Shown: positions 4,242-62,038 of the stretch, piece by piece | How the letters are laid out: the number at the start of each line of letters is the position of its first letter | Numbering within the stretch: the stretch's first letter is position 1 | Assembly: GCA_046327745.1 (NCBI GenBank) | Contig: JAXLXV010000030.1 | Span: 8,469-72,468, forward strand | Length of the DNA: 64,000 nt | Source of the DNA: Gemmatimonadaceae bacterium | GTDB taxonomy: Bacteria; Gemmatimonadota; Gemmatimonadetes; Gemmatimonadales; Gemmatimonadaceae | Direction of reading: 5' to 3' | Notes under the pieces: model-generated | What the model was told of the DNA's origin: nothing | Databases searched by the model: none | The model's input: only the letters and a program-made list of their open reading frames with translations | Position numbers and translations under genes: made by a program

Positions 4242-4966
4242 GTGCCGGAGTCTCAACCAAGCGGTCGAGGGTCAAAGGTTAACAACCTGCTCGAATCAAA
4301 GAAGAAGAAGCAGAAGACGTTAGGCGGTACGCCTTCAGCTTCATCGCACACGGCACGCCATCCTGCTGGCCGTGATCGCCACCGCCTGGCCTGCGCAGGA
4401 GTCGCGTAAGCCGAAAGAAAAGTTGACTTCGTCGGCGCCGAAAGAGGAAGTGAAGCCGAAGGAGCCGGAACCACCACTGGTTCAGCAGGCGGCACCCTGC
4501 CGCCGAAAGGCTTCCAAACGCTTACCGCGCCGATCGAAATTCCTGACGTGCTGCCGGACATCGACCTCACCCGCAAGGTGACGGACGAAGCCGACTTCAC
4601 CGGGAAAGCTCCAGGGCGGTATTGCGAAGGGTGTCGAGAAGAAGGTCGAAGGCGGTGAAGGAAGACCAGGCGTATTTCGAGTTCCAGGTCGAAAAGCCCG
4701 TCGTTCCGGCGCCAGGATCTTTCAGCCGCGCTATCCGGACATTCCGGCAGGCCGCGTCGAGGTGGCGAAGTGCTCGCCCAGTTCGTGGTCGACACCACCG
4801 GTCGCGCCGAGACAGGGTCGTTCAAGGTCCTCCAGCTCGTCGCACGACCTCTTCGCGCAAGCCGTGAAGTCCGCTCTTCCAGGTATGCGCTTCATTCCCG
4901 CCAGGCCGGTGAAAGCGGGTGAAGTAGCTCGTCCAGCAGCCGTTCACGTTCGCCATCACCAAGTAG
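4242..4966 (+). pseudogene. TonB-family energy transducer, decayed copy (multiple frameshifts plus an internal TAG)
   Basis: TonB-like segments are scattered over all three + frames. They are NNLLESKKKKQKTLGG (frame 0), FSFIAHGT (frame 2), ILLAVIATAW..KEEVKPKEPEPP (frame 1), LPPKGFQTLTAPIEIPDV (frame 0), EDQAYFEFQVEKPVVPAPGS (frame 2), GGEVLAQFVVDTTGRAETGSFKVLQ (frame 0), SSHDLFAQAVKSALPGMRFIPA (frame 1) and KRVK*LVQQPFTFAITK* (frame 2, TAG at 4925-4927). No single ORF spans it. Confidence 0.7.
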
Positions 4967-5001
4967 TAGCGTCTCACTCTTCACCGCGGAGCACGTTTCT
5001 T

Positions 5002-5739
5002 ATGAATCTCGATCTTGCCGAGATTTGGGAAAAAACCCCCAAGTTTGGAAAGTTCCTGTGGTTCGTCCTCGCGTTCATGTCGATCTGGTCGCTCTCGACC
5101 GCTATCGGCAAGTGGTGGAGCCTGCGCAAGGCTCAGGGCGAGACGATCAAGTTCGCCCCCGAGTTCTCGCAGTTCCTCGAAGAGGACAACCTCACCGAAG
5201 CCATCAACCTCGCTGAGCGCTACAAGAAGTCTCACGTCGCCCGCGTCCTTGGTGGCGCGTTGGCCGAAGTGAAGCCGCTCATCATGGATGGTTCGGTCAC
5301 GGTCTCGGACATCAACACGGCCGAGCGTGCGGTTGAGCGCGAAATGCTGATGGAAATCGTTCAGCTGAAGCGCGGTCTGTCGATTCTGGCCACTGTCGGC
5401 GCCACGGCGCCGTTCGTCGGTCTGCTCGGCACGGTGTTCGGCATCATCAACGCCTTCACGGGCATGGCCAAGTCTGGCGGCGCTGGTATCGCCGCGATTT
5501 CGGCTGGTATCGCTGAAGCACTGATCGCCACGGGGTTCGGCCTCATCGTCGCCATCCCGGCCGTGTGGTTCTACAACTACTTCACGACCAAGATCGACAA
5601 CCTCACCGCGGAAATGACCTACACCTCGAAGGAGATGATCGACTATCTCATCAAGGGTGTGTCGGGTGAGTTCGGCCGTTCGCGCTTCACCCGCGAGTTC
5701 AATACGCAGGTGCAGGGCGGTAACCCGGTTTCCCAGTAG
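5002..5739 (+). CDS. exbB: MotA/TolQ/ExbB proton-channel protein
   Basis: The internal ATG at 5002 of ORF 4762..5739 gives MNLDLAEIWEKTPKFGKFLW... The conserved ATVGATAPFVGLLGTVFGIINAF and AEALIATGFGLIVAIPAV motifs are present. Confidence 0.9.
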   Translation: MNLDLAEIWEKTPKFGKFLWFVLAFMSIWSLSTAIGKWWSLRKAQGETIKFAPEFSQFLEEDNLTEAINLAERYKKSHVARVLGGALAEVKPLIMDGSVTVSDINTAERAVEREMLMEIVQLKRGLSILATVGATAPFVGLLGTVFGIINAFTGMAKSGGAGIAAISAGIAEALIATGFGLIVAIPAVWFYNYFTTKIDNLTAEMTYTSKEMIDYLIKGVSGEFGRSRFTREFNTQVQGGNPVSQ

Positions 5740-5772
5740 TCGGCAGCCCAACCCCGATAGGAGGGCTTTCCG

Positions 5773-6234
5773 ATGGGAATGGCAGTTGGCACGGGCGGCG
5801 TTAAGGCCGAGCCTAACGTCGTACCAATGATCGACGTCATGCTGGTGTTGCTCATCATCTTCATGGTGGTGACACCAGCCCTCGCGGCGGGCTTCACGGC
5901 TACTCCCCCTCAGGGAATCAACCTGAAGACGCACCCCGAGGAAGATTCCGACCAGATCCTCGGCATCGACGTCAATGGTAAGTACTTCATGAACAAGGTC
6001 GAAGTCGGTAAGGACACGCTCGACAAGGTCATCAAGGCGATCTACGACGCGCGCTCCATCGACAAGATCTTGTACGTCAAGGCGGACAAGGACCTTCCGT
6101 ACTCCGCCGTGCTCGACGCCATGGATATCGCGTCGAAGAACGGTGTCCGCGTAGTCGGTGCGATCTCGGAGCAACAACCCGGTACCAAGTCCACGGTGCC
6201 AGGCGACGCTCCCGACATGACCAAAAAGAAGTAA
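5773..6234 (+). CDS. exbD: biopolymer transport protein ExbD/TolR
   Basis: The 153-aa product has EPNVVPMIDVMLVLLIIFMV followed by a periplasmic domain. An AGGAGGG Shine-Dalgarno sequence lies upstream. Confidence 0.9.
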   Translation: MGMAVGTGGVKAEPNVVPMIDVMLVLLIIFMVVTPALAAGFTATPPQGINLKTHPEEDSDQILGIDVNGKYFMNKVEVGKDTLDKVIKAIYDARSIDKILYVKADKDLPYSAVLDAMDIASKNGVRVVGAISEQQPGTKSTVPGDAPDMTKKK

Positions 6235-7809: not shown

Positions 7810-9324
7810 ATGAACAGCGTGGCCGACCAGACCAACGCTTCAGGGAGTCGTGCGGACTTTGTTCGTGCGCTCACGCTGACGGACGCGACTATGCTGGTCG
7901 CTGGATCGATGATCGGGTCAGGCATCTTCATTGTCGCAGCCGACATCGCGCGCACGCTGAATTCACCGCTCTGGTTGATTCTGGTGTGGGTAGGCACCGG
8001 ACTGATCACCTTGCTTGGTGCGCTGGCCTACGGGGAGTTGGCGGCGATGTATCCACGGGCCGGCGGCCAATATGTGTTCCTTCGCGAGTCGATGGGTCCT
8101 CTCGTTGGTTTTCTCTACGGGTGGACCCTTTTTCTTGTCATCCAGACCGGGACCATCGCCGCGGTTGCCGTCGCCTTCGGCCGATTCCTTGGCGTCTTCG
8201 TCCCGCAGCTCACACCCGAGCGCTTCACCTGGTTTCCGAGCGCTGATGTGTGCCTTCGTATGCTCGGCTGTACGGACGCCAGCAAGGCATTCCAATTCGG
8301 CCTCTCGCCACAGCGTGTCATGGCCTTGGTGTCGATCTGGGTGCTGACTGCGATCAATCTTCGTGGCATCAGTGAGGGCAAGTTCGTGCAGACCTTGCTC
8401 ACCATGGTGAAAGCGGCGTCGCTGGCCCTGCTTATAGTGTTGGGGCTGACGATTGGTCGGAATGCGACGGCCGTGGCGGCGAACTTTGGCGCCGGCCTGG
8501 TGGGCGCTCCGCCCGTGGGATCGGCGCTCGTATTAGCGGTGGGTGCAGCGATGGTGGGGTCTCTGTTTTCCAGCGACGCCTGGAACAACGTCACCTTCGC
8601 TGCGGCGGAGGTTCAAAATCCTCGCCGGAACCTGCCGTTGGCGCTTCTGCTTGGCACGGGGCTCGTCTCGCTGCTGTACGTCTTGGCCAACGTGGCGTAC
8701 TTGAACACGTTGCCGTTAGGCGGCGATCCGGCCGGCGCAACGGCCGTGGCACGGGGCATCACCCACGCCACGCAGGACCGTGTCGGAGTCGCCGCGGCCG
8801 AGGCCATGTTCGGGAGCGCGGGAAGTATCGCCATGACCGCTGCTATTCTCGTCTCCACCTTCGGGTGCAACAACGGCCTCATTCTGTCAGGGGCCCGTGT
8901 CTATTTTGCGATGGCGCGCGATGGGTTGTTCTTCCAGCGCGCCGGAGCACTCAATGCGCAACGCGTTCCGGCGTATGCCCTGGTGGTGCAGTCGTTGTGG
9001 ACCTCCCTGTTGTGCCTGTCGGGGACGTATGGGCAACTGCTGGATTACGTGATCTTCGCCGCGCTGGTGTTCTACGTACTCACGACCATCGGGCTCTTTG
9101 TGTTGCGCCGGAAGGCGCCGGAGATGGAGCGCCCGTATCGCGCGGTGGGATATCCGGTCTTGCCCGGCGTGTACATCGCCTTGGCGTCGACCGTCGCGGT
9201 GATTCTGCTACTGGCCGAAAAGACTAGGGCGCAGGCCGTGTCGGGCCTGCTGCTCGTTTTGATTGGCGTTCCTGTGTTTTACCTATGGCGGGCCTCGAGT
9301 GAGGCGCGCCCGTTGGCCGCATGA
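7810..9324 (+). CDS. amino acid permease (APC superfamily)
   Basis: The 504-aa polytopic membrane protein has the APC-type N-terminus LTLTDATMLVAGSMIGSGIF. Confidence 0.85.
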   Translation: MNSVADQTNASGSRADFVRALTLTDATMLVAGSMIGSGIFIVAADIARTLNSPLWLILVWVGTGLITLLGALAYGELAAMYPRAGGQYVFLRESMGPLVGFLYGWTLFLVIQTGTIAAVAVAFGRFLGVFVPQLTPERFTWFPSADVCLRMLGCTDASKAFQFGLSPQRVMALVSIWVLTAINLRGISEGKFVQTLLTMVKAASLALLIVLGLTIGRNATAVAANFGAGLVGAPPVGSALVLAVGAAMVGSLFSSDAWNNVTFAAAEVQNPRRNLPLALLLGTGLVSLLYVLANVAYLNTLPLGGDPAGATAVARGITHATQDRVGVAAAEAMFGSAGSIAMTAAILVSTFGCNNGLILSGARVYFAMARDGLFFQRAGALNAQRVPAYALVVQSLWTSLLCLSGTYGQLLDYVIFAALVFYVLTTIGLFVLRRKAPEMERPYRAVGYPVLPGVYIALASTVAVILLLAEKTRAQAVSGLLLVLIGVPVFYLWRASSEARPLAA

Positions 9325-12045: not shown

Positions 12046-13584
12046 ATGTCGTTCATGGCCCGGAAGTCGGAAGCGGAATTGGAGTCGGACGTCACCCACA
12101 CGGGCGGCTTAAAACGTTCGCTGAACCGGTGGCACCTGACGGCGCTCGGTGTGGGTGCGACGATTGGCGCCGGGATCTTTGCCACCACCGGTACAGCGAT
12201 CGTTGGTGATGCGGCGCGACCAGGGGCCGGGCCTGCCATCATCTTCTCATTCCTCCTGACGGCAGTCGCCTGCGGGTTTGCCGCGCTCTGCTACGCCGAG
12301 TTTGCGGCGATGGTCCCGGTGGCGGGTTCGGCGTACACCTACGCGTACGCCTCGATCGGCGAGCTGGTTGCGTGGATCATTGGCTGGGACCTGATCGTGG
12401 AATACGCCGTCGGCAACATTGGCGTGGCCATCGGCTGGTCCGGCCACTTTCGAGAGTTGCTGACGCACTTTGGCGTTCAGATGCCTGCTTGGCTCGCCAC
12501 CGACTACCGCAGCGCGCACGACGCCTTCAATGCGGTTGCAACTGGCGTGAATGATGCCAGCACGCAGTATCTGGCGTCGGCCTGGAATACGGCGCCGCAT
12601 TTCATGGGCCTGCCGGTGATCGTGAACTTGCCGGCGGCCGCCGTCGTTTTCGTCATCACGATCGTGCTGGTCATTGGCGTGAAGGAGTCGGCCAACTTCA
12701 ACAATGGAATGGTGCTGCTGAAAATCGGCATCATCCTGTTCTTCTTGGCCATAGGGGTGTTCCTCATCAAGCCAGGAAATTGGTCCGATGCGTCGGCGGG
12801 AGGGTTCGCTCCAAACGGCTTTGCCGGCGTAAGTGCCGCTGCTGCGATCATCTTCTTCAGCTACATCGGATTTGATGCAGTGTCGACAGCCGCCGAGGAG
12901 GCACAGAATCCGGCGAAGGACATGCCCTTCGGCATCATCATGAGCTTGATCATCTGCACCGTGCTGTATATCGCACTGTCGGCGGTGATGACGGGCATGG
13001 CCCCCTGGAAGCAGTTAGGGACTCCCGAGCCGATGATCACGGCGCTGCAATACTCCAATGGTCCGCCAAAGCTGGTGGAGTTCTCCCGCTTCATCATTGC
13101 GTTAGGCGCCGTCGTGGCCATGGGAAGCGTCCTGCTGGTCTTCCAGCTGGGGCAGCCTCGGATCTTCTATTCGATGGCCCGCGACGGACTTCTTCCACCA
13201 GTCATGGCCAAGGTCCACCCGCGTTTCCGCACGCCCTATGTGGGTACGATCCTCACGGGAACATTCGTAGCAACGTTCGCCGCCTTCGCCAACATCGCCG
13301 AGGTCGTGGACCTCACGAATATCGGGACTCTGTTTGCTTTCGTCCTGGTCTCGGCTGGGGTGATCTTTCTCCGGCGCACCGACCCAGACCGCAAGCGACC
13401 ATTCCGAGTTCCCGGCGTGCCGTTCACGCCGGTGATTTCGATTGTCTCGTGCTTTTACCTGATGTGGCAGCTGCCGACGATCACCTGGATCCGGTTTGGC
13501 ATCTGGCTGGCGGTCGGCCTGGTGTTCTATTTCGTGTACGGGTATCGCCACTCTGTTCTGCGCCTGAAGACCACGAAGTCCTAA
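12046..13584 (+). CDS. amino acid permease (APC superfamily, cationic amino acid transporter-like)
   Basis: The 512-aa product has LTALGVGATIGAGIFATTG and about 12-14 predicted TM segments. Confidence 0.85.
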   Translation: MSFMARKSEAELESDVTHTGGLKRSLNRWHLTALGVGATIGAGIFATTGTAIVGDAARPGAGPAIIFSFLLTAVACGFAALCYAEFAAMVPVAGSAYTYAYASIGELVAWIIGWDLIVEYAVGNIGVAIGWSGHFRELLTHFGVQMPAWLATDYRSAHDAFNAVATGVNDASTQYLASAWNTAPHFMGLPVIVNLPAAAVVFVITIVLVIGVKESANFNNGMVLLKIGIILFFLAIGVFLIKPGNWSDASAGGFAPNGFAGVSAAAAIIFFSYIGFDAVSTAAEEAQNPAKDMPFGIIMSLIICTVLYIALSAVMTGMAPWKQLGTPEPMITALQYSNGPPKLVEFSRFIIALGAVVAMGSVLLVFQLGQPRIFYSMARDGLLPPVMAKVHPRFRTPYVGTILTGTFVATFAAFANIAEVVDLTNIGTLFAFVLVSAGVIFLRRTDPDRKRPFRVPGVPFTPVISIVSCFYLMWQLPTITWIRFGIWLAVGLVFYFVYGYRHSVLRLKTTKS

Positions 13585-13596
13585 CGAGAGATCCCC

Positions 13597-14913
13597 ATGA
13601 CCAGCACCGTCGCCGCCCCCTCCGGCGAATCGCGTCCATCCGGTTTGCGCCGCATCAGTGCGACGCAGTGGATCATCATTTCCATGCTCGTCGGCATCCT
13701 CCTCGGCTGGCTGTTCCCGGAGTCGGCCCGGGCGCAGCACGGCGGGTGGGCCGCGTCGGACCTCAAGGTCATCGCGACGATCTTCCTCCGGATGATCAAG
13801 TCGCTGATCGTACCACTGTTGTTTTCCACGCTGGTGGTCGGCATCGCGGGGCACGGGGATGACATGAAGAAGGTGGGTCGCCTCGCGTTCCGCTCCATCG
13901 TGTATTTCGAAGTGGTCACGACGTTGGCGCTGGCGGTTGGTCTCATGGCCGTGAACCTGACCAAGCCCGGCATCGGCATAGACCTTGGCGCCGCCACGTC
14001 CACCGAAGGCACCGAGTTCGCCGCCAAGAAGGCGACATTGTCGGGCGTCCTCGAGCACACCGTCCCGCAGAGCTTCTTTGAGGCGGCCGCGAACAACGAA
14101 GTCCTTCAGATCGTCTTCTTCGCCATCATCTTCGGCGTGGCGCTCTCCCGCGTGCAGGGGAAGAACAAGGAGTTCATGCTCACGGCGGTGGAGAGCCTGT
14201 CGGATGTGATGTTCAAGTTTGTGGCGATCGTGATGGCGTTTGCGCCGTTTGGTATCGGTGCCGCCATCGCGGTGACGGTTTCCAAGAGCGGGTTGGACGT
14301 GCTCAAGAACCTCGGCCTGCTCGTGGCTACACTCTACGGCGCCCTCATTGTCTTTGTGCTCGGCGTTCTCGTCCCAGTCATCCTGATCTTCAGGCTTCCG
14401 CTGGGCAAGTTCCTGCGCGCGGTGAAGGAGCCGTGGCTCATCGCCTTTTCCACCGCGTCGTCCGAGGCCGCGTTGCCACTGGCCATGCAGCGCATGGAGG
14501 CCTTTGGCGTTCCGCGTCGCATTGTGGCGTTTGTGTTGCCGACGGGATACTCGTTTAACCTGGATGGCAGCACGTTGTACCTGGCGTTGGCATCCGTGTT
14601 TGCCGCGCAGGCTTCGGGCATTGACATGCCGATTGGGACGCAGCTCTACATGATGCTGGTGCTCATGTTGACCAGCAAAGGCGTGGCTGCCGTCCCCCGC
14701 GCCTCTCTGGTGATCCTGTCCGGAGCGATTGCGATGTTCGGATTGCGACTTGAAGCCGTGGCCATCATCCTCGGCGTCGACGCGATCATGGATATGGCGC
14801 GGACGTCCGTGAACCTACTGGGGAATTGCCTGGCATCCGCCGCCATGGCCCGTTGGGAAGGCGAATTCCGCGACGATGCGCCGGAAGCCGCCGCGGGTCG
14901 TCAGGCCGCCTAA
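13597..14913 (+). CDS. dicarboxylate/amino acid:cation symporter (DAACS, GltP/DctA family)
   Basis: The 438-aa product has FSTASSEAALPLAMQ and GYSFNLDGSTLYLA motifs typical of the family. Confidence 0.9.
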   Translation: MTSTVAAPSGESRPSGLRRISATQWIIISMLVGILLGWLFPESARAQHGGWAASDLKVIATIFLRMIKSLIVPLLFSTLVVGIAGHGDDMKKVGRLAFRSIVYFEVVTTLALAVGLMAVNLTKPGIGIDLGAATSTEGTEFAAKKATLSGVLEHTVPQSFFEAAANNEVLQIVFFAIIFGVALSRVQGKNKEFMLTAVESLSDVMFKFVAIVMAFAPFGIGAAIAVTVSKSGLDVLKNLGLLVATLYGALIVFVLGVLVPVILIFRLPLGKFLRAVKEPWLIAFSTASSEAALPLAMQRMEAFGVPRRIVAFVLPTGYSFNLDGSTLYLALASVFAAQASGIDMPIGTQLYMMLVLMLTSKGVAAVPRASLVILSGAIAMFGLRLEAVAIILGVDAIMDMARTSVNLLGNCLASAAMARWEGEFRDDAPEAAAGRQAA

Positions 14914-14977
14914 GTCGGTCTCGCGTGAAGCACCCGACGGGCCAGCGCGGACGTCGGGTTGGCCGGGGGGCCGTGCC

Positions 14978-15910
14978 CTAGTGCGTCGGCGCGTCGGAGA
15001 AGCGCATCCCTCGCTTGATCGCTCCACGAACGGCGACGACGTCTTCCACGCGAAGTTGTGCGCCGGGCACCATCGACTTCAGCCGAGCCTCCAGGCGTTT
15101 GCGAACCAACGAGCCTTTCTGCGTGAGGCCGCCGGCCAAGGCAACGGGGACTGCGGCTCGCTCGTCCACAAACAGCTGCCGCGCGAGGGTCCGCACATGC
15201 AAGGCCAGCTCCTCGACGCCTAACGTCACAAGGGCGTTGGCGCGCAGGTCGCCACCCTTGGCGCATTCGAAGAGGGCGGGGACCAGTTGAGCGAATTGTG
15301 CCGGTGTGGCGTCTGAGGCCCACGGCACCAGCGAGTCCACCGACGGCGCGCCCGTCGCCGCGAGCACGGCAGCGGTGAGTGCAGTTTCTGGCTCGCGACC
15401 ATCAGACGCGGCGGCTACCACGCCAAGTACTCGGCGACCAAGCCAAGCGCCGCTGCCTTCGTCACCGATCACCGGTCCCCATCCGCCACAGCGGGCCAGC
15501 GCTCCGGCGGGACCGCGTCCAAAACAAATAGATCCTGTCCCAGCGATCAGCAATACGCCGGGACCTTCGCCAAACGCGTCTTCCAGTGCGACTTCGGCGT
15601 CCGTCACGACCAACACGTCGCCCGCAATCTCACGCGCGAGAAGTGCGGCGTGCAAGGCGCTGCGCTCTTCGTCACGACCCACGCCGGCCACACCAACGCA
15701 GGCGAGTCGCACGCGCGGGAGCTCCGAGGTTAGCGTGGCCTGCGCTTCCCTGATGACTCCGGCGATGACTTCCGCGGATCGCTCCACATCGCCCGGCCGC
15801 ACCGCACTGCCAGGCCCTTCGGCGGAAGCCAGTGTCGCTCCCGTTTCATCAGCAATGCTCACGCGGGTATGTGTACCACCGCCGTCAACTCCAACAATCA
15901 CTGAGCTCAC
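14978..15910 (-). CDS. BadF/BadG/BcrA/BcrD-type ATPase, N-acetylglucosamine kinase-like
   Basis: The GTG start at 15910 gives VSSVIVGVDGGGTHTRV... with LIAGTGSICFG and VIGDEGSGAWLG. GTGA overlaps the upstream transporter stop. The ORF-track N-terminal extension to 16303 overlaps the transporter gene and is rejected. Confidence 0.8.
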   Translation of the reverse strand: MSSVIVGVDGGGTHTRVSIADETGATLASAEGPGSAVRPGDVERSAEVIAGVIREAQATLTSELPRVRLACVGVAGVGRDEERSALHAALLAREIAGDVLVVTDAEVALEDAFGEGPGVLLIAGTGSICFGRGPAGALARCGGWGPVIGDEGSGAWLGRRVLGVVAAASDGREPETALTAAVLAATGAPSVDSLVPWASDATPAQFAQLVPALFECAKGGDLRANALVTLGVEELALHVRTLARQLFVDERAAVPVALAGGLTQKGSLVRKRLEARLKSMVPGAQLRVEDVVAVRGAIKRGMRFSDAPTH

Positions 15911-17451: not shown

Positions 17452-17463
17452 GGCGTTAGGCCC

Positions 17464-19413: not shown

Positions 19414-19417
19414 CGGA

Positions 19418-42353: not shown

Positions 42354-42359
42354 CGTTTC

Positions 42360-46315: not shown

Positions 46316-47352
46316 CCACGGCACTTCGATTGGCTTTGGTGGGATGCGGGCGCATCAGCCGCAACCATTTCGAGGCCATTGCGGCGATTGACGGGTTGGA
46401 GCTGGCAGGAGTCTGCGATAGCGTGGAAGACCGTGCGCGGAGCGCTGGCGAAACGCACGAGGTGCCATGGTTCACCTCGTACGAACGATTGCTGGAAGGC
46501 GTGGCTTGCGACATCGTGGCGATCTGCACGCCGTCGGGCCTGCATCCGGCGCACGGGATTCTGGCGGCCAAGGCGGGGAAGCATGTGGTCTGCGAAAAGC
46601 CGATGGCGATCACGTTGTCGGCCGCCGACGACCTGGTGCATGCCTGTGACGCAGCGGGCGTGCAGTTGTTCGTCGTGAAGCAGAACAGGCTCAACCCGCC
46701 GGTGCAGTTGGTGAAGCGTGCCATCGACAAGGGACGCTTCGGCCGCATTTACATGGCCAATACCACGGTGCGGTGGACGCGCCCGCAGGAGTACTACGAC
46801 CAGGCGCCGTGGCGCGGGACGTGGGAGTTCGACGGGGGCGCGTTCATGAATCAGGCCTCACACTACGTGGACTTGATTCAGTGGCTGGTTGGCCCTGTCG
46901 AGAGCGTCATGGCCAAGACGGCCACGTTAGCGCGCCGCATTGAAACAGAAGACACCGGCATCGCCATCCTGAAGTTTCGCTCCGGAGCCCTCGGCGTCAT
47001 CGAGGTCACGATGCTCACCTACCCGCGAAACCTCGAGGGATCGCTGACCATCCTGGGAGAGAAAGGCACCGTGAAGATTGGCGGCACCGCCGTCAATCGT
47101 GTGGAACACTGGGCGTTCGCCGACTACGATGACGACGACAAGCTCGTCGACGCGACGGCGACAAATCCGCCTAACGTGTACGGGTTCGGGCACGAAGCCT
47201 ACTATCGAAACGTGCTGGCGGTGCTGCGTGGCGAGGCCCGCCCCGACACCGACGGCCGGGCGGGGCGGAAATCCCTCGAGTTGATTCTCGGCGCGTATGA
47301 ATCGGCGAAGACGGGAGCGGAAGTTCCACTGCCGCTGGTCGTCGCTCGCTGA
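46312..47352 (+). CDS. Gfo/Idh/MocA-family oxidoreductase (WbpB/WlbA-like sugar 3-dehydrogenase)
   Basis: An ATGA overlap joins it to the previous gene. The product has [17 protein letters not shown] and VVCEKPMA. The ORF-track start 46075 is rejected. Confidence 0.8.
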
Positions 47353-47519
47353 CTACACCAGAGGTCGGATCGCCAAGCCGCTCGACACCGCGGCGCGCAA
47401 GACGTTAGGCGGGGTGCTGAGCCGTCGGTCGCTGCAGCTGCGTTGACGGGCCGGTGTCCAACCTGTGAAGTTTCGATGCCGCCGAGGCGGCCGAATGACC
47501 CATTCTTCCGGTTTCCGCC

Positions 47520-50009: not shown

Positions 50010-50050
50010 GCTCCGCGATCCCGCAATAACGTTAGGCTAGCGGAGCACGA

Positions 50051-51355
50051 GTGAACATTTCGGTCATTGGAACTGGATACGTCGGACTGGTTGTGGGTGC
50101 CTGTCTTGCCGAAACCGGTAACGACGTCGTGTGCGCGGATGTCGATGCGAAGAAGATCGACGGGTTGAAGGAGAACGTCATCCCGATCTACGAGCCGGGA
50201 CTGGAAGCGCTGGTAGAGCGAAACCAGCGCCAGGGCCGGATCAGCTTCACCACGGATGTCGCGGCATCGATTGGTCGCGCGGACGTGATCTTTATTGCCG
50301 TCGGGACGCCGCCAGACGAGGATGGATCCGCCGACCTTCGCTACGTGCTGGACGTAGCGGACAAGATCGGCCGGCACATGAAGCGAGAGCTGGTGGTGGT
50401 GACCAAGTCCACGGTCCCCGTGGGCACGGCGGCCAAGGTTGCAGCCGCAGTCTCCAAGCACGCGAAGCTTCCGTTCCACATGTGCTCGAATCCCGAGTTC
50501 TTGAAGGAAGGCGCTGCCGTCGACGACTTCATGAAGCCCGACCGCGTGGTGTTGGGTGTGGACAGCGATCACGCGCGAAGCGTCATGGCGGAGCTGTACG
50601 CGCCGTTCGTGCGCACTGGCAAGCCGATCATCTTCATGGACATTCCGTCGGCCGAGATGACGAAGTACGCCGCGAACGCCATGCTCGCCACGCGCATTTC
50701 GTTCATGAACGAGATCGCGAACCTTTGCGAACGCGTCGGGGCGAACGTGGACTTGGTGCGTAAGGGGATCGGCACCGACAGCCGCATCGGTCCGTCATTC
50801 CTCTTTCCGGGTCCGGGTTACGGCGGCTCATGTTTCCCGAAGGACGTGAAGGCGCTGGTCCGAACCGCCCACGAGGTGGGGGCCTCCCTCAGCGTGCTGG
50901 ACGCTGTGGAAGATGCCAACGAGCGACAAAAGCGCCGCCTGTTTGAGAAGCTCCAACGCACGTTAGGCGAGTTGCGCGGCACTCGGGTGGCGATCTGGGG
51001 TCTGGCGTTCAAGCCAAACACGGACGATATGCGCGAGGCACCGGCGTTGGTGCTGATCGACCAATTGCTGGAACAGGGCGCGACGGTCACGGCACACGAC
51101 CCGGCGGCCATGCACGAGACCAAGCGAAAGATCGGCGACCGCATCACGTACGCGGAAACCAACTACGAAGCGTTGACAGATGCCGACGCCTTGGTGGTCG
51201 TGACCGATTGGAATGAGTACCGGCACCCGGACTTTACCCGCATCAAGTCCACGCTCAGGCGGCCTGTGATCGTCGATGGCCGCAACCTCTACAACCCGGA
51301 CAAAATGCGCGCGCTCGGATTCCAGTACCTCTCGATCGGCCGGGGTGCTGAATGA
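50051..51355 (+). CDS. ugd: UDP-glucose 6-dehydrogenase
   Basis: The GTG start gives [19 protein letters not shown]. The product also has [13 protein letters not shown] and [13 protein letters not shown]. Confidence 0.9.
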
Positions 51356-52356: not shown

Positions 52357-52491
52357 TGCCGTTCCGGTCCAGATAGGCCCTCGCGCCCTCGCAAGCGGGT
52401 GCGGTGATTATGTTTCGTGCTTGCCACGGGGGGCCTATTTCGCCCCCCGTTCCTTGAATCCCTAGGCACTCCAGACGGGTACTCACCCGCC

Positions 52492-53271
52492 ATGCACCGC
52501 TCTCGTTGGGTCCAGCTCTCACTGATCGTCTTGGGGACGTCGTCCCTGGGATGCGCGTCGGGCTTCAAGCTCACGCGATACACAACCAGCGAGAGCCTGT
52601 ATCGGGCGGCGATGGACCAGTTCCGCCGTAAGAAGTGGGACAATGCCATCCAGGCCTTCGAGAAGCTGACCCTGGACCTGCCGGCGCGCGACACGCTTTT
52701 GCCGATGTCGCACTACTACCTGGCCAAGTCTCACGCTGGCCGGGGCGATCACTTGCTGGCGGCTCAGGCGTACAGCCGCATGGCGGAGAGCTTCGCGACC
52801 GACTCCCTGGCAGACGACGCCACGTTTGAGTCGGGGCTCGAATACGAAAAGTTGTGGCGAAAGCCGGTGCTCGACGCCCAGTACGGCGGCGAGGCGCTGA
52901 CGGTGTTCCAGACCTTCTTGGCCCTCTATCCCGATAGCGAGCTCCGCGACAAGGCGGTGGCCGAGATCCAGCGGATGCAAGAGTGGTTTGCCACGAAGGA
53001 CTTCGAGAACGCGATGTACTACTTTCGGCGCAAGGCATACGACCCGGCGCTGATCTACTTCCGCGACGTCGTTAGGCTGTATCCAGAGACGGAACGCGCC
53101 AAGGACTCCTACCTGCGGATGGCCGAAGCTTACGACGCCATCCGTTGGAAGGACGATAAGACAGAGGTCTGCAAGACCCTCTGGGAGCGCTACGCCAAGG
53201 ATCCGCAGGTACCGATCGTCTGTGGGCGTGCACCCCCTCCTGTCGATACGGTGCGTAAGGGCTCGCCGTAG
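52492..53271 (+). CDS. bamD: outer membrane protein assembly factor BamD (TPR lipoprotein)
   Basis: The internal ATG gives MHRSRWVQLSLIVLGTSSLGC with a lipobox. TPR-like repeats are present (YRAAMDQFRRKKWDNAIQAFEKL, YYFRRKAYDPALIYFRDVV). Confidence 0.8.
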   Translation: MHRSRWVQLSLIVLGTSSLGCASGFKLTRYTTSESLYRAAMDQFRRKKWDNAIQAFEKLTLDLPARDTLLPMSHYYLAKSHAGRGDHLLAAQAYSRMAESFATDSLADDATFESGLEYEKLWRKPVLDAQYGGEALTVFQTFLALYPDSELRDKAVAEIQRMQEWFATKDFENAMYYFRRKAYDPALIYFRDVVRLYPETERAKDSYLRMAEAYDAIRWKDDKTEVCKTLWERYAKDPQVPIVCGRAPPPVDTVRKGSP

Positions 53272-58316: not shown

Positions 58317-60497
58317 ATGGCGACGACCCTGAGCGAAATCATTCCAGGTTGGACGCTTCCGGACTCGATTTCGGAGCGTCTGGACATGGATTTGCTCTCC
58401 CGCGCCTATCGATTCTCCGAAAAGGCGCACGAGGGACAGCTCCGCCGAAACGGCGATCCTTACGTCACGCACTGCGTGGAGGTGGCCAAGATCCTGGCCG
58501 AACTGCAGCTCGACTCGGTGACGGTGGCCAGCGGGCTGATTCACGACGTCGTGGAAGACACGCAGGTCACCGTCCCCGATCTGGAGAAGGAGTTCGGCTC
58601 GGAAGTATCCCAGATTGTCGATGGACTGACGAAGATCGGCAATCTGCCGCTTAACTCCACCGAAGAGCGGCAGGTCGCGAACTACCGCAAACTGCTGCTG
58701 TCGATCGCGAAAGATGCGCGCGTCATCATCATCAAGCTGGCCGACCGTCTGCATAACATGCGGACGTTGGACGCCTTGCCAGAGGCCAAGCAGCGACGCA
58801 TTGCGCAGGAGACGATGGACCTGTACGCGCCGCTGGCCCACCGGTTCGGTATGGCGCGGATGCGATGGGAGTTGGAAGACCTCGCGTTCAAGTACATCGA
58901 GCCCGACGAGTACCGAAAGCTGGCCCGGTTGGTCGCGAACAAGCGTGGTGAGCGTGAATCCCTGATTGCCCAACTCCGCGAGCCATTGGAGCGGACGCTG
59001 ACGCAGGCAGGCATTAAGGATGTTGAGGTCACCGGACGCGCGAAGCACCTGTGGTCCATCTGGAAGAAGATGGAGAAGCGCCAGCGTCCCTACGAGGAGA
59101 TCTACGACCTGCTGGCGATTCGCGTGCTCGTGAATTCCGTGCCGGACTGCTATCACGCGTTAGGCGTGATTCACGATGGATGGACGCCCCTGCAGGAGCG
59201 AATCAAGGACTATATCGCCCAGCCGAAGTCGAACGGGTATCAGTCCCTGCACACGACCATCTTCGGTCCGGGCCGCCAGCTGTACGAGATCCAGATCCGG
59301 ACGCGCGAGATGCATCGCACGGCGGAGATCGGCATCGCGGCGCACTGGCGGTACAAGACTGACTCGAAGGCGAAAGACGAATTCGAGCGACAGCTCCACT
59401 GGTTCCGCCAAGTGCTGGAGTTGCAGCTGGATGCCAAGGATCCTGCCGAGTTCCTCGAATTCCTAAAGCTCGACTTGTATCAGGACGAGATCTTCGTCTT
59501 CACCCCGACGGGCGACGTCATTCAGCTGCCGAAGGGAGCGACACCGATCGACTTCGCCTTTGCCGTACACACCGAAGTCGGGAAGCGTTGCTCAGGTGCA
59601 AAGGTCAACGGCAAGATCGCGCCGTTGTCGCGCCAACTGAAGAACTCCGAAACCGTCGAGATCCTCACGTCGCAGAATGCCAAGCCGAGTCGTGACTGGC
59701 TGGCGCATGTCCGGACCGGACGCGCGCGGCACAAGATCCGGCAATGGCTGAAGTCCGAAGAGCAAATGACATCGGTGCGGGTCGGGCGTGAAATGCTCGA
59801 TCGTGAGCTGAAGAAGCGCCGACTGGGCAAGGTGGAGGACTCGCAACTCGAGTCGGCGGCCAAGACGTTGCATCTGAATGACGGGAATCACCTCATAGCG
59901 TCGTTGGGCCAAGGGGACCTGAACCTTACGCAGGTCCTGAAAGCGATCTTTCCCGAGATCGACCCGGCGCCCGATGCAGTGCCCAAGCCCTCGGCCCTCG
60001 AACGGCTCATGGACCGGGTTCGAGGCACTTCCAAAGGGATCACGATTCAGGGCGCCGACGGCCTGATGGTCCGCTATGCGCAGTGCTGCCAGCCCGTGCC
60101 TGGCGACCAAGTAGTTGGCTACGTCACCCGAGGTCGCGGGGTCTCGATCCACCGATCGGACTGCCCGAATCTGCTCATCCTGATGCACGAGCCCGAACGC
60201 CGGCTGGACATCGACTGGAAAGAGCAGGCCGGTGAGCGATTCGTTGTACGTCTGGCCCTCGAAGGCAACGATCGTCGCGGGCTCTACGCGGACCTCGCGA
60301 GCGCCGTCAGCTCCACCGGCACAGACATCCGCAGCATGGAGCTGCGCGCCGTGGACGGTCGCGTGTCGGGCGCTGCATTGGTCGAGGTCGAGAATCTCGC
60401 CCATCTGCAACGCATCATGCGGGCGGCGCGCCGCGTGAAAGGGATCATCGACGTCGCGCGGCGCGAGCGTATCTCGGCGGACGAGCATCAGGCCTGA
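58317..60497 (+). CDS. rel: bifunctional (p)ppGpp synthetase/hydrolase (RelA/SpoT homologue)
   Basis: The product has an HD hydrolase motif (YVTHCVEVA...GLIHDVVEDT), a synthetase region (YQSLHTTIF), and TGS and C-terminal ACT-like domains. Confidence 0.95.
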   Translation: MATTLSEIIPGWTLPDSISERLDMDLLSRAYRFSEKAHEGQLRRNGDPYVTHCVEVAKILAELQLDSVTVASGLIHDVVEDTQVTVPDLEKEFGSEVSQIVDGLTKIGNLPLNSTEERQVANYRKLLLSIAKDARVIIIKLADRLHNMRTLDALPEAKQRRIAQETMDLYAPLAHRFGMARMRWELEDLAFKYIEPDEYRKLARLVANKRGERESLIAQLREPLERTLTQAGIKDVEVTGRAKHLWSIWKKMEKRQRPYEEIYDLLAIRVLVNSVPDCYHALGVIHDGWTPLQERIKDYIAQPKSNGYQSLHTTIFGPGRQLYEIQIRTREMHRTAEIGIAAHWRYKTDSKAKDEFERQLHWFRQVLELQLDAKDPAEFLEFLKLDLYQDEIFVFTPTGDVIQLPKGATPIDFAFAVHTEVGKRCSGAKVNGKIAPLSRQLKNSETVEILTSQNAKPSRDWLAHVRTGRARHKIRQWLKSEEQMTSVRVGREMLDRELKKRRLGKVEDSQLESAAKTLHLNDGNHLIASLGQGDLNLTQVLKAIFPEIDPAPDAVPKPSALERLMDRVRGTSKGITIQGADGLMVRYAQCCQPVPGDQVVGYVTRGRGVSIHRSDCPNLLILMHEPERRLDIDWKEQAGERFVVRLALEGNDRRGLYADLASAVSSTGTDIRSMELRAVDGRVSGAALVEVENLAHLQRIMRAARRVKGIIDVARRERISADEHQA

Positions 60498-60649
60498 CCC
60501 CGGCGACTGCCAAGACGTACCATGCCGGTCGAGATGTCGTCGGCCGTTATGCAAACTGTGGGAACGATTGCCGTATACGAGTCAGCCTTGCCGCGGGTTG
60601 CGACCGGCCGCTCGGCGCGACACCTAACGTCACGCGGGCAGCTGGGTCC

Positions 60650-61435
60650 TCACGCGGCCAATCGGGACAAGTCACGCACCACAACGATCAGCTGGCAGCC
60701 GGTCTCGGTGGTGGTGGTGTGATGGTGCGTTCCCGCAGCTGCCCGGTGGTAGTCCCCTTCGGTCATCGTCTGACCTTCCACCAGACAGGACCCGCGGAGC
60801 ACGAAAAGCTCCTCGAGCCCGGAGTGATCGTGGTCGGCGAGCGACGAGCGTGGTGCCATGTCCAGCACAAACGCTTCGTCTGGCGCGCCATGCGCTCCAC
60901 GCAGCGGACGCAGCCGCGCACCCGGAAAGGGGACGATCCACTTCGCATCGTTGACCCGTCTGACGACTCCGTCGCTCCCTGTTACCGTAGAGCCAAATTC
61001 CAGCACCAGGGCGCCCTGGTCGGTCGCGCGCCATCCAGACTCTGCGCGCTCCTCGACAAAGTCACCCTCCGTCAGGACGTCTTGACCTTCGCCGAGAGCT
61101 CCACCAAGCACGTACACGCCTCGTGATCCGACGAGAGGGCGATCGGGGAGTGGGGTGCTTGGGGCAAGCCGCAGCAATCTCGTGGTGGCTCGGTCGGCTG
61201 AGTCCAGGTACAAGGCCTTTGCGTCAACCCCTGCGGAGACGGGCAACCAGATGCCCGCATGGCTGGCGACGTAGGAGAGGGTTCGCTCACGCGCCTGTGC
61301 CATGATGCGCGTTCGCAGCGTCGCGGGGGGCGGCGCGGCCTGCTGCGCCACGGCCGAAGCGATCAAGGCCAACGCCTCAGCGTCCGAGCGGCTGATCCCC
61401 GATCCCGTGGAATCGTCCGGATCCTTAGCGCCCAT
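60650..61435 (-). CDS. cupin-domain protein, ChrR-like putative anti-sigma factor partner (no zinc anti-sigma motif seen)
   Basis: The 261-aa gene lies directly downstream of the ECF sigma gene (24-nt gap). The C-terminal cupin-like part is HDHSGLEELFVLRGSCLVEG...GDYHRAAAGTHH. Confidence 0.6.
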   Translation of the reverse strand: MGAKDPDDSTGSGISRSDAEALALIASAVAQQAAPPPATLRTRIMAQARERTLSYVASHAGIWLPVSAGVDAKALYLDSADRATTRLLRLAPSTPLPDRPLVGSRGVYVLGGALGEGQDVLTEGDFVEERAESGWRATDQGALVLEFGSTVTGSDGVVRRVNDAKWIVPFPGARLRPLRGAHGAPDEAFVLDMAPRSSLADHDHSGLEELFVLRGSCLVEGQTMTEGDYHRAAAGTHHHTTTTETGCQLIVVVRDLSRLAA

Positions 61436-61459
61436 GGATCAGCAGAGGTAGCAAGGCAG

Positions 61460-62038
61460 TCATCGCGCAACAACTGGTTGAAGCAGCTGACGGAGCTGGT
61501 TCATGGCCGAGTGGACCAGCATGCTAGCGCCGTGTGAGGGGAGCGCCAGTCGCTGAGCGACGTCTTCGATGGAGAGTCCATCCATGAATACGAGATCCAG
61601 CGCCTCTCGTTCAGTGGACGATAGAACGTCCAAGGCGGCCAACACGCGATCGCGGCGCGCCGCATCCGCAGACGATGAGAAAGCCAGCGAAAACTCCGCC
61701 GTATCACCTTGGGCCATCCCGACTCGACCATTCGCTGCCGGAACCAAACGCGGGAGCCTCGGACGCTGCTGGGCGATGCGACGACAGAGCGTCACCAGCC
61801 ACGCCCGCATGGACGCGCCGACTTCGCGTGAGCCTTGGGGTTCTTGCCACACCGAGCGGAACACCGCGGACACGATGTCCTCGGCTTCGTCGCGATCTCC
61901 CGTTAGGCGGAGTGCCAACCCGAACAGCATGGCGCTGTATGTGTCATACAGGCGACCGAGGGCGGTGTCATCGCCGGCCGTAATGCGCTCGAGGAGCGCG
62001 GGATCGTGGGTGCCGCCTGGGGGGGTGTCTTCCGGCAT
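61460..62038 (-). CDS. ECF-type RNA polymerase sigma factor (sigma-70 regions 2 and 4)
   Basis: Region 2 is [34 protein letters not shown]. Region 4 is [29 protein letters not shown]. Confidence 0.85.

Follow-up and report, generated by a model that had tools for sequence, protein, structure and literature searches.

Uptake and Chi sequences are short DNA words that serve as self tags in bacteria. Examples of uptake signals are USS in Pasteurellaceae and DUS in Neisseriaceae; USS also shapes the proteins of Haemophilus, and phages and other mobile DNA tend to contain few copies of the known uptake sequences. Most bacteria with RecBCD or AddAB are expected to have some Chi sequence, and to our knowledge replication polarity marks every known Chi. 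Bobay et al. reportedly found in 2013 that Chi follows the host pattern in phages dependent on the recombination machinery of their host. Here, we describe an octamer, CGTTAGGC, that may be a previously undescribed DNA-level tag of this kind; we found no earlier description of it in the literature. It was analyzed in a 64,000-nt stretch (the window) from an uncultured Gemmatimonadaceae soil bacterium and in related genomes.

An exact search of the window retrieved 26 copies, 19 on the plus strand and 7 on the minus strand, in agreement with the original prediction except that one copy begins at 50030 rather than 50031. CGTTAGGC is the commonest of all 8-mers on the plus strand and reaches a density of 0.4 per kb. 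The G+C content of the window is 62.8% (about 65% had been assumed). Dinucleotide shuffles contained a mean of 1.25 copies (maximum, 5), and Markov models of orders 1 to 5 with the motif masked predicted 0.6 to 1.2. A synonymous-codon shuffle, run within each gene with every protein and the per-gene codon usage preserved, gave 0.85 ± 0.88 in-gene copies (maximum, 4), compared with 20 observed. The predicted excess was thus borne out under the shuffled, Markov, and codon-shuffled nulls, with 26 copies against about 1 under every model, or approximately 20-fold across genes, stop codons, and spacers. The word is sharp at all eight positions, and its flanks are not conserved.

The copies sit wherever coding allows, and all six reading frames are occupied, TAG and TAA stop codons among them; each frame assignment in the original prediction proved correct. 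Twelve copies read xCG-TTA-GGC (Ala/Pro/Thr-Leu-Gly) on the coding strand, 11 of them in plus-strand genes. GCG-TTA-GGC (Ala-Leu-Gly) occurs on the plus strand in genes for an amino acid permease (12046-13584; copy at 13100-13107), a CDP-alcohol phosphatidyltransferase (21675-22472; 22183-22190), a short-chain dehydrogenase (27562-28368; 27713-27720), CarB (42360-45716; 44815-44822), and RelA/SpoT (58317-60497; 59158-59165), as well as in a small open reading frame (ORF) (24308-24580; 24339-24346) and another ORF (33638-34204; 33813-33820). CCG-TTA-GGC (Pro-Leu-Gly) occurs, also on the plus strand, in a second amino acid permease gene (7810-9324; 8714-8721), an N-acetylmuramoyl-L-alanine amidase gene (34936-36141; 35198-35205), and again in carB (45178-45185). 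ACG-TTA-GGC (Thr-Leu-Gly) is found in a UDP-glucose/GDP-mannose dehydrogenase gene (50051-51355; 50961-50968, plus strand) and in the one minus-strand case, a BadF/BcrA-type ATPase gene (14978-15802; 15218-15225, minus strand).

Other in-gene copies are read as Pro-Asn, Leu-Thr, or Val-Arg. Minus-strand copies lie antisense, as CCT-AAC (Pro-Asn), in the ExbD gene (5773-6234, plus strand; 5811-5818), a GDP-mannose-dehydratase-family gene (41286-42353; 41729-41736), and a GFO/IDH/MocA oxidoreductase gene (46075-47352; 47169-47176). CTA-ACG (Leu-Thr) arises from minus-strand copies antisense in a PHP-domain gene (26772-27644; 27310-27317) and the ribosomal protein S13 gene (38014-38391; 38066-38073) and from plus-strand copies antisense in two minus-strand genes, a GlcN6P-isomerase/PIG-L fusion (17464-19512; 17962-17969) and a sigma-70-family gene (61460-62038; 61901-61908). 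A plus-strand copy in a YfiO/TPR lipoprotein gene (52417-53271; 53070-53077) is read as GTT-AGG (Val-Arg). The word supplies the TAG stop codon of a metallo-beta-lactamase-fold gene (29462-30103; 30098-30105, plus strand) and, as its reverse complement, the TAA stop codon of the dehydratase-family gene (42348-42355, minus strand). Plus-strand copies occupy the 12-bp spacer between a minus-strand symporter gene (15907-17451) and the fusion gene (17454-17461) and the spacers 47353-47519 (47403-47410) and 50010-50050 (50030-50037). A further plus-strand copy (4318-4325) lies between a histidine kinase gene (2431-3918) and an ExbB-like gene (4762-5739) and is read as ACG-TTA-GGC only in a doubtful 75-amino-acid ORF (4182-4409).

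One-third of the in-frame TTA codons in the window lie inside the word (12/36), rather than the half originally estimated, and the word encodes 27% (12/45) of the [A/P/T/S]-Leu-Gly tripeptides. The statement that almost every TTAGG pentamer is preceded by CG was roughly right (32/44 are CGTTAGG). Whichever of the six frames is read, CGTTAGGC yields either a stop codon or one seldom used in these high-G+C genomes. It is consequently almost absent from unrelated high-G+C DNA, a property that makes it a good tag. Because the excess persists under the codon-aware null and all six frames are used, the proposal that a force acts on the DNA word rather than on the protein is strongly supported, as it is by the orthologous sites described below.

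A cultured carrier is Gemmatirosa kalamazoonensis KBS708, whose 1.1-Mb plasmid 1 holds 777 copies (27.5 expected; 0.7 per kb). On this replicon, 79% of TTA codons lie inside the word, as do 54% of TAA stop codons, and the word is used at 24% of [A/P/T/S]-Leu-Gly sites and 55% of compatible Pro-Asn sites. CGTTAGGC was found on every replicon examined. Genes with atypical, low third-position G+C have a lower density, and motif-free stretches are low in G+C. The word also reaches host-like density in a contig from a true phage (10 copies in 26 kb), which carries genes for a terminase, a portal protein, a DNA polymerase of its own, and 7-deazaguanine DNA modification; no integrase was seen in these 26 kb. 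Another phage fragment, L218, holds 6 copies in 13.5 kb.

Among relatives, clades are wholly with or wholly without the word, and the two kinds are interleaved: motif-bearing relatives hold 124 copies in 368 kb, while other Gemmatimonadota loci hold none in 1.05 Mb. Relatives without the word never write the orthologous Ala-Leu-Gly or Gly-Leu-Thr sites as CGTTAGGC, in line with the orthologous-site check originally proposed. At carB site 44815, those with Ala-Leu-Gly use GCG-CTC/CTG/CTT-GGC/GGG/GGT, and at S13 site 38066, Gly-Leu-Thr is kept without the word in 11/12 non-bearing relatives. Site 17962 is retained in 6/22 motif-bearing and 0/58 non-bearing relatives. Some residues appear to have been changed to fit the word, much as in Haemophilus proteins shaped by USS. 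At carB site 45178, another residue replaces the Gly of Pro-Leu-Gly in 71/72 non-bearing relatives, and at site 15218, Thr-Leu-Gly occurs in 0/40 aligned relatives, those listed having Thr/Ser-Leu/Met/Ile-Ala.

Single sites are gained and lost at a near-neutral rate, with overall density maintained. The closest relative, L019, shares the copies at 38066, 44815, and 47169 (the last also with L001) and has one-off variants at 33813 (GCGTTAGGT) and 35198 (CCGTTAGTC). It also carries one copy in each of the spacers 47353-47519 and 50010-50050, where the flanks are unalignable. The copy at 45178 is common only to L053, and the spacer copy at 17454 has counterparts in the same position in L115, L116, and L137. 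One-mismatch variants are moderately enriched both in the pooled relatives (250 versus 152) and on plasmid 1 (1,014 versus 671). Copies in the window are spaced more regularly than random (gap coefficient of variation, 0.62 versus 0.97; P = 0.005; Greenwood statistic, P = 0.002), and gaps of 100 to 250 bp are half as common as expected on plasmid 1.

CGTTAGGC has no polarity. On plasmid 1, the leading strand carries 53% of the 777 copies, and the intergenic copies divide 127:119. Same-strand and antisense copies stand at 37:19 in leading-like genes and 29:16 in lagging-like genes, which are equal ratios. The 19:7 split in the window had been considered a possible sign of a Chi-like or other polarity signal, with gene-strand bias as an alternative. 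The latter fits, since peptide compatibility and gene-strand bias together give an expectation of 0.62 (P = 0.31); the skew thus reflects gene-strand bias and coding constraint.

We tentatively favor a clade-specific self-DNA tag for uptake or recombination, analogous to USS or DUS, at a probability of about 35%. Among the mechanisms originally listed, an uptake signal and a protein-binding site remain live options. Some protein would read the word as duplex DNA in either orientation, most likely as a DNA-uptake signal for natural transformation; we infer both the identity of this reader and the uptake step. A surface or periplasmic DNA receptor may bind fragments bearing CGTTAGGC, which would then be imported and recombined more often than word-free fragments. 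Alleles that happen to hold the word would be overtransmitted (molecular drive), and it could spread to every coding-permissive position until gain was balanced by mutational decay and by the cost that rare codons and altered residues impose.

Several observations are consistent with such an uptake signal. Even spacing is expected if one tag per fragment suffices, and the enriched one-mismatch variants fit a balance of gain and decay. The all-or-none, interleaved clades are as expected if a dispensable function, competence for example, had been lost repeatedly and the word had then decayed. The strength and sharpness of the enrichment, the saturation of permissive sites, the lack of polarity, the turnover of sites, and the lower density in atypical DNA also count in its favor. 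USS and DUS have lineage "dialects," whereas none were found for CGTTAGGC among the relatives; this, and the absence from the window of inverted pairs able to serve as terminators, was counted against uptake. So was the density on the two megaplasmids, which equals or exceeds that of the chromosomal window. The window genes are housekeeping genes, with no sign there of competence machinery, a receptor, or an uptake bias. The host-like density in phage fits an intracellular reader better than an uptake signal.

The main rival is such an intracellular reader, with CGTTAGGC a nonpolar, Chi-like tag that restrains machinery for DNA degradation or recombination. A helicase-nuclease or defense system would destroy or fail to repair word-free DNA and would spare or repair DNA on meeting the word; the genome would retain a copy every 1 to 3 kb, and resident phages and plasmids would copy the tag. 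The prevalence of Chi among bacteria with RecBCD or AddAB raises the prior for this reading, and CGTTAGGC, which is short and asymmetric, has a Chi-like density in both the window and plasmid 1. Its regular spacing suits a signal needed soon after any break, and the host-like density in phage and megaplasmids and the lower density in atypical genes also agree. However, known Chi sites are polar, whereas CGTTAGGC is indifferent to orientation, and its enrichment and recruitment of the rarest codons far exceed theirs. An all-or-none distribution among close relatives would also be odd for a core repair signal, and non-bearers have no comparable substitute word. We regard this reading as possible, although on the unlikely side.

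The cyanobacterial octamer HIP1 has been proposed, among other explanations, to be a binding site for an abundant chromosome-organizing or nucleoid-associated protein, kept by selection every kilobase or two. Indifference to orientation, more-even-than-random spacing, presence on all large replicons examined, and sharpness at all eight positions would suit such a site, but we consider it unlikely here. With several thousand sites, the benefit from any one would be very small, making rare codons, residue changes, and stop choice at 24 to 55% of permissive sites hard to pay for. Moreover, individual sites are not conserved, and a lytic-looking phage carries the word without obvious need for a host architectural site.

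Quite unlikely, in our judgment, is a sequence-specific repair or gene-conversion bias, in which an enzyme resolves near-copy mismatches toward the perfect word, so that it builds up by biased mutation in any DNA replicating there. The occurrence of the word across chromosome, megaplasmids, and phage, the lack of polarity, and the near-neutral site turnover are in keeping with this, and the patchy phylogenetic spread fits a mobile gene. Nevertheless, the bias predicts no short-range repulsion, contrary to the deficit of 100- to 250-bp gaps, and no one-mismatch variant is depleted in the pooled relatives or on plasmid 1, several being enriched. We know of no enzyme that recognizes 8 bp specifically and corrects mismatches at any position within them. 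The very-short-patch version, which had been among the candidate explanations, corrects one position only and was rejected: T-variants are nearly absent from non-bearing relatives (against 124 perfect copies, scaling predicts 0.4 copies of TGTTAGGC and 2.8 of CGTTAGGT) and are thus far too rare as a source of the enrichment, and no variant is depleted.

Genomes usually avoid restriction targets rather than enrich them, and CGTTAGGC is not palindromic. A DNA methyltransferase or restriction-modification target whose abundance is tied to methylation is very unlikely, although the patchy, mobile-looking distribution would fit such a system and the methylated octamer HIP1 provides a precedent for hyperabundance and quasi-periodicity (bioRxiv 10.64898/2026.06.24.733823). 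The KBS708 SMRT methylome lists only RGATCY, ATGCAC, and CCAGN7TCA, all m6A (PMC3974934); CGTTAGGC is missing from this list despite its one adenine and its thousands of copies, which speaks against the methylation site originally suggested insofar as m6A is concerned. Lastly, a role as a polar signal on the chromosome, whether of the KOPS type read by FtsK or as some other architecture-imparting sequence, would accommodate the 19:7 split and the positive GC skew of the window plus strand but is scarcely credible given the coding-only expectation, the near-even leading-strand share on a complete 1.1-Mb replicon, the identical coding-strand ratios in both gene orientations, and the 3:5 orientation in relative L024, in which every gene lies on the plus strand.

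Exact searching of the window recovered all 26 copies of the octamer CGTTAGGC that the original prediction had placed there, 19 on the + strand and 7, read as the reverse complement GCCTAACG, on the - strand. The window has a G+C content of 62.8%; dinucleotide-shuffled versions of it carried a mean of 1.25 copies (maximum, 5), and Markov models of orders 1 to 5, with the motif masked, predicted 0.6 to 1.2. Under the strictest null, a synonymous-codon shuffle within each gene that preserves the proteins and each gene's codon usage, 0.85 +/- 0.88 copies were expected inside genes, compared with 20 observed. The count thus lies far above all of these expectations, in line with the excess originally claimed, and chance or a codon-pair artefact is ruled out. 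The word ranks first among all 8-mers on the + strand of the window, while each of its 24 one-mismatch variants occurs at background (0 to 6 copies). Gaps between copies are more even than random (coefficient of variation [CV], 0.62 versus 0.97; P = 0.005), with a longest word-free stretch of 6.1 kb.

The flanks of the word are uninformative, in the window as well as among 124 pooled copies from relatives, where the sole signal is a purine at +1 (78% of copies). Because the flanks carry no information, the word is not part of a longer motif, repeat, MITE, or RNA gene. Neither conserved sequence beyond the core nor a mostly intergenic location, the marks of REP- or MITE-type dispersed repeats, was found in the window, where 77% of copies are genic; the sole exception is a local family of ~98-nt hairpin elements on Gemmatirosa plasmid 1 (see below), in which the word forms the ends. 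Tandem Repeats Finder returned nothing relevant for the window. Rfam detected one tRNA and no other RNA gene, namely, a tRNA-Leu(CAG) on the - strand (34253-34341), immediately upstream of smpB (34463-34939).

Window genes were called with a codon-usage model and most were checked against Pfam. They are ordinary housekeeping genes (carB, secA, relA/spoT, uvrB, rpoA, rpsM, smpB, and those for an H+-pyrophosphatase, permeases, and sugar-nucleotide enzymes). Of the 20 genic copies, 12 read xCG-TTA-GGC (Ala/Pro/Thr-Leu-Gly) and 1 reads GTT-AGG (Val-Arg) on the coding strand; on the antisense strand, CTA-ACG (Leu-Thr) accounts for 4 and CCT-AAC (Pro-Asn) for 3. The remaining two frames hold a stop codon, and both serve as genuine stops (TAG at 30098 and TAA at 42348). 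Three copies lie in short spacers, and the copy at 4318 was assigned to no gene. All six frames of the word are used wherever the protein permits. TTA is among the rarest Leu codons of the window (36/1834), and 12 of these 36 lie inside the word, which spells 27% of the [A/P/T/S]-Leu-Gly tripeptides and 30% of compatible Pro-Asn sites. Such placement in tolerant frames, with an accompanying codon and peptide bias, is characteristic of uptake sequences. The codon-shuffle excess and the six-frame use bear out the DNA-level force on the word proposed in the original prediction. RNA-level or translational explanations, including regulation through TTA codons, were rejected, since the word is confined to no one strand or frame and occurs in spacers as well.

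CarB assigns the window to an uncultured Gemmatimonadaceae lineage, the best match being a metagenome-assembled genome (86% identity). Three window proteins (encoded at 458-1663, 42360-45716, and 58317-60497) had no exact counterpart in the public gene-position index. Among CarB loci from GTDB species genomes, a monophyletic word-bearing group comprises the window and L019, L003, L001, L026, and L033 (0.9 to 4 copies per 10 kb); L002 falls inside this group yet has no copies in 11 kb. The word is also borne by L053, whose partial carB was left out of the tree, and by a distant lineage, L024 (3.4 copies per 10 kb), and is absent from ~35 other Gemmatimonadota CarB loci. For a second window gene, it was present in 22/80 metagenome loci, which form four or five clades with nearly all members bearing, interleaved with word-free clades; L135, nested in a bearing clade, has no copies in 9 kb. 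Taken together, bearing loci hold 124 copies in 368 kb, and none was found in non-bearing Gemmatimonadota loci (8 kb or more each; 1.05 Mb in total) of similar G+C content. Clade-wide presence with absence from outgroups is likewise a property of uptake sequences. The background is very low because each frame of the word contains a stop or a codon seldom used by high-G+C genomes.

At orthologous sites, non-bearing relatives never write the matching residues with the word, a comparison that had been proposed as a check. At 44815, 14 non-bearing loci encode Ala-Leu-Gly, mostly as GCG-CTC/CTG-GGC and none by the word; at 17962, 17 encode Gly-Leu-Thr, again none with the word. Some amino acids appear to have been changed by the word to residues that relatives almost never have at these sites (Gly in the window versus Glu or Asp at 45178 and versus Ala at 15218). 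Between the window and its nearest relatives (~75% nucleotide identity), word sites are retained scarcely more often than an arbitrary 8-mer would be by chance; with L019, 3/9 sites are kept versus 0.11 expected (P = 0.07), and two further sites are one mismatch away from the word. Site-specific purifying selection was therefore rejected. Two intergenic spacers hold the word in a relative as well, although their flanks are unalignable. Given this reappearance and the near-chance retention of sites, overall density is evidently upheld while single sites turn over. Bearing loci also contain a moderate excess of one-mismatch variants (250 versus 152 expected from non-bearing loci).

No lineage dialects of the word were found when strong 8-mers were sought in non-bearing relatives; the top 8-mers there derive from tandem heptamer arrays and are not dispersed. 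One octamer, ATCGTCTG, is mildly common in all loci compared, and its abundance is probably codon driven. The heptamer arrays are intergenic, often form inverted pairs able to fold into long hairpins, and differ in unit among Gemmatimonadaceae lineages [e.g., (CTGACAC)n, (GACGGGA)n, and (ACGTGAG)n]. They were located in L018 (7892-8046), L053 (2858-2886, 4052-4080, and 6612-6640), L020 (365-471), L010 (13024-13277), L013 (5160-5415), L014 (503-565), and L008 (8025-8548). On Gemmatirosa plasmid 1, near 202010 and 454806, two inverted arrays are centred on CGTTAGGC.

Plasmid 1 of the cultured carrier Gemmatirosa kalamazoonensis KBS708 (NZ_CP007129; 1,106,233 bp, 72.7% G+C) was analysed whole. 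It contains 777 copies (403 on the + strand and 374 on the - strand; 0.70 per kb) versus a Markov-4 expectation of 27.5, and at least 751 if one copy of a known tandem duplication is removed. The first 50 kb of plasmid 2 hold 20 copies. An exact short word far above expectation, as in uptake sequences, is thus found in both the window and plasmid 1. By our own gene calls for plasmid 1, 79% of TTA codons (307/389) lie inside the word, which occupies 24% of [A/P/T/S]-Leu-Gly sites and 55% of compatible Pro-Asn sites and supplies 54% of TAA and 23% of TAG stops. Spacing is again more even than random (CV, 0.879 versus 0.999 +/- 0.036), with gaps of 100 to 250 bp at half the expected frequency. 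Word-free stretches tend toward low G+C content, and, among genes, the word occurs at 0.37 copies per kb in the lowest GC3 quartile versus ~0.6 elsewhere. An association with terminator hairpins was not seen on plasmid 1, where flanking stems are no commoner at intergenic than at genic copies.

Other local features of plasmid 1 involve the word or its absence. A hairpin element of ~98 nt is present in at least 10 copies at 814175-846989 (L177, 14175-46989), in a lower-G+C region with many small open reading frames (ORFs). Each copy has the word inverted at its two ends (GCCTAACG, an interior of 80 to 82 nt, and CGTTAGGC); the inner stems covary among copies, the outer flanks are unrelated, and no Rfam family matched. 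At 1005342-1005436 (L181, 5342-5436), close to the GC-skew minimum, the word is repeated in tandem: six copies of CGTTAGGC, each with a spacer of 4 bases (mostly GCGG), follow one another every 12 bp, and a seventh copy of the word lies 27 bp upstream. This array lies within a 624-amino-acid minus-strand ORF and would encode a short repetitive peptide; as a coding repeat, it is not an obvious centromere or iteron. Finally, two identical 6-kb stretches (12144-18189 and 65204-71249; 64.7% G+C, 53,060 bp apart) have no copies of the word and look like recently acquired DNA. Both are included in the 53-kb tandem duplication of plasmid 1 reported in the genome paper (PMC3974934).

In the original prediction, the 19:7 ratio in the window was said to fit a polar, Chi-like signal but also gene-strand bias. 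Of the coding DNA of the window, 87% is on the + strand, and the coding strand holds 65% of the genic copies in relatives, since no other compatible peptide is as common as Ala/Pro/Thr-Leu-Gly. From these two values a + fraction of 62% is predicted, from which the observed 19/26 is no different (P = 0.31); gene-strand bias and peptide compatibility thus explain the skew. In pooled relatives, coding and antisense copies are distributed 37:19 in genes oriented like those of the window + strand and 29:16 in genes oriented like those of its - strand (Fisher P = 1.0). For plasmid 1, cumulative GC skew located the origin at ~1.02 Mb and the terminus at ~0.345 Mb, and plotting orientation against these positions, as the original prediction advised, revealed no polarity: 412/777 copies (53%) are on the leading strand (P = 0.10). 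Intergenic copies divide 127:119, genic copies lie on the coding strand in 65% of cases for leading-strand genes versus 58% for lagging-strand genes (P = 0.15), and the strand fraction in 50-kb bins ranges only from 46 to 60%. Occurrence in both orientations without replication polarity is shared with uptake sequences. Co-direction with replication beyond gene-strand bias, as in Chi, was not found in the window, the relatives, or plasmid 1, and a skew of more than ~80% that flips at origin and terminus, as in KOPS or architecture-imparting sequences, was not found on plasmid 1. With 53% of copies on the leading strand, the word thus lacks the defining genomic feature of both kinds of signal.

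The full 8-mer is subject to a strong DNA-level force in Gemmatimonadaceae lineages that are patchily distributed. This force does not depend on orientation, yields diminishing returns over short distances, is balanced by decay, and reaches the chromosome, megaplasmids, and a phage. We propose that a putative protein reads duplex CGTTAGGC and that DNA with the word would be favoured. The leading interpretation, to which we give a probability of roughly one in three, is that the word is a candidate uptake signal of the USS/DUS kind, driven by biased import and recombination. This interpretation best explains why cheap sites are saturated to such an extreme and why sites turn over while density stays constant; it also best explains the even spacing, the lack of polarity, and the all-or-none clade pattern, which could arise if competence were lost and the word then decayed.

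The uptake signal sequence (USS) of Pasteurellaceae (Haemophilus influenzae core, AAGTGCGGT) is an exact, short, asymmetric word present about once per 1 to 2.5 kb. It is mostly genic in peptide-tolerant frames, occurs in both orientations with even spacing, has moderately enriched one-mismatch copies, and is shared by a clade. In all of these respects (abundance, genic tolerant frames, both orientations, spacing, one-mismatch enrichment, and clade sharing), CGTTAGGC is USS-like. It differs in having 8 bases without flanking AT-rich tracts, in the phylum of its host, in the lack of dialects, and in its host-like density in a phage and the megaplasmids. The DUS of Neisseriaceae (GCCGTCTGAA) is similarly hyperabundant, clade specific, non-palindromic, and without replication polarity, and the inverted pairs that close hairpins on plasmid 1 recall DUS pairs in terminators. 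In contrast to DUS, the window has no inverted pairs of CGTTAGGC, most copies are coding (77% in the window), and there are again no dialects; DUS is read by the minor pilin ComP, whereas the reader of CGTTAGGC is a putative protein. The cyanobacterial octamer HIP1 (GCGATCGC), unexplained for ~30 years, shares quasi-periodic spacing and presence on plasmids with CGTTAGGC. HIP1 is, however, palindromic, methylated by known enzymes, and nearly phylum-wide, whereas CGTTAGGC is asymmetric (it differs from its reverse complement, GCCTAACG), not reported as methylated, and patchy inside one family. HIP1 is now proposed as an uptake signal (bioRxiv 10.64898/2026.06.24.733823). Overall, CGTTAGGC resembles USS, DUS, and HIP1 in how abundant it is, in its placement within coding DNA, in its lack of polarity, and in its spacing.

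The density of the word in phage and megaplasmids argues against uptake and for the main rival explanation. Close pairs of the word were sought in IMG/VR; most matches were due to chance, but they included two phage contigs (66% G+C) from the same metagenome. The first (IMGVR_UViG_3300020577_002214; L305/L399; 41.7 kb) has 10 copies in the 26.3 kb read (contig 1-26274; 0.38 per kb), two of which were needed for its selection by the scan. It encodes a terminase, a portal protein, head-morphogenesis proteins, and a DNA polymerase, beside which lies a 7-deazaguanine DNA-modification set (QueC, QueD, QueE, GTP cyclohydrolase, and a DpdA-like transglycosylase); no integrase was seen within contig 1-26274. 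The second (L218; IMGVR_UViG_3300020577_001838; 13.5 kb) is a tail-gene fragment with 6 copies. Neither has a close relative in the collection: the nearest share 55% identity or less and have 0 to 2 copies each. Uptake sequences tend to be sparse in phages and newly acquired DNA; the density of CGTTAGGC is lower in low-GC3 genes and low-G+C stretches and host-like in the phage contig and two megaplasmids, and, because phage contigs bear the word at such density, at least some phage genomes are subject to the force that drives it.

Under this main rival, the word would be an intracellular, Chi-like but non-polar self tag, and DNA with the word would be spared or repaired. Like Chi (Escherichia coli GCTGGTGG and Lactococcus GCGCGTG, recognized by RecBCD or AddAB, with weakening of the nuclease and stimulation of RecA loading), CGTTAGGC is an asymmetric, over-represented 5- to 8-mer found every few kilobases. 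Chi can also run against genome base composition, as in Lactococcus, and phages can bear it at host-like density. However, Chi is co-oriented with replication, with ~70 to 80% of copies on the leading strand versus 53% for CGTTAGGC on plasmid 1, which stands against Chi in its classical form, and the enrichment of CGTTAGGC is much stronger, drawing in the rarest codons. We regard the self tag as somewhat unlikely. A bolder and unlikely proposal is that CGTTAGGC is an orientation-independent duplex-DNA "self licence," belonging to an undescribed system and displayed every 1 to 2 kb by all resident replicons. If so, the word would be neither an uptake signal nor a classical Chi site; chromosome, megaplasmids, and even lytic phages would be subject to it, with phages copying the tag to pass as self, and bacterial immunity or DNA maintenance would thereby have its first case of DNA positively marked as self through sequence density.

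The other explanations fare less well. We judge an architectural binding site quite unlikely. KOPS and other architecture-imparting sequences (GGGNAGGG, read by FtsK) are also dispersed 8-mers recognized as duplex DNA, but they are strongly skewed, G-rich, and denser toward the terminus, none of which holds for CGTTAGGC. A generalised repair bias is very unlikely. In the specific form of a very-short-patch repair footprint, one of the original candidates, it was rejected, as the T-for-C variant TGTTAGGC is enriched rather than depleted (8 versus 0.4 in pooled relatives and 77 versus 15 on plasmid 1), and T-variants are far too rare in non-bearing relatives to feed the excess. A methylation site had also been suggested. 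The KBS708 genome and methylome paper lists three m6A motifs (RGATCY, ATGCAC, and CCAGN7TCA) and mentions neither the word nor its methylation (PMC3974934). Methylation of the word as m6A is therefore unlikely. A 5mC-linked mechanism, to which SMRT sequencing of that period was blind, is highly improbable.

To our knowledge, genome-saturating uptake words are known from only two bacterial families. If the uptake interpretation holds, CGTTAGGC would be a third, independent genome-saturating word, non-palindromic and non-polar, in an abundant but poorly studied soil phylum. We found no earlier description of the word in the literature searched: neither strand of CGTTAGGC occurs in those papers, and none ties Gemmatimonadetes to uptake sequences or to AddAB or RecBCD. 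The word overrides codon usage to the point that 79% of TTA codons and about half of TAA stops on plasmid 1 exist only inside it, which should warn gene callers and codon-usage models of a strong non-translational constraint. KBS708 is a cultured, fully sequenced type strain carrying probably thousands of copies of the word, the function of which is therefore directly testable, and the all-or-none pattern across hundreds of Gemmatimonadota metagenome-assembled genomes should let phylogenetic profiling find the reader gene. As a practical marker, the word can aid contig binning and the assignment of plasmids and phages to bearing hosts.

A second over-represented word in the window is the palindrome TTCATGAA, with 5 copies (5986, 46843, 49446, 50528, and 50702) versus 0.61 expected. 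Many Gemmatimonadaceae loci (e.g., L018, L022, L033, and L036), with or without CGTTAGGC, are likewise enriched for this palindrome, a separate, wider family-level word.
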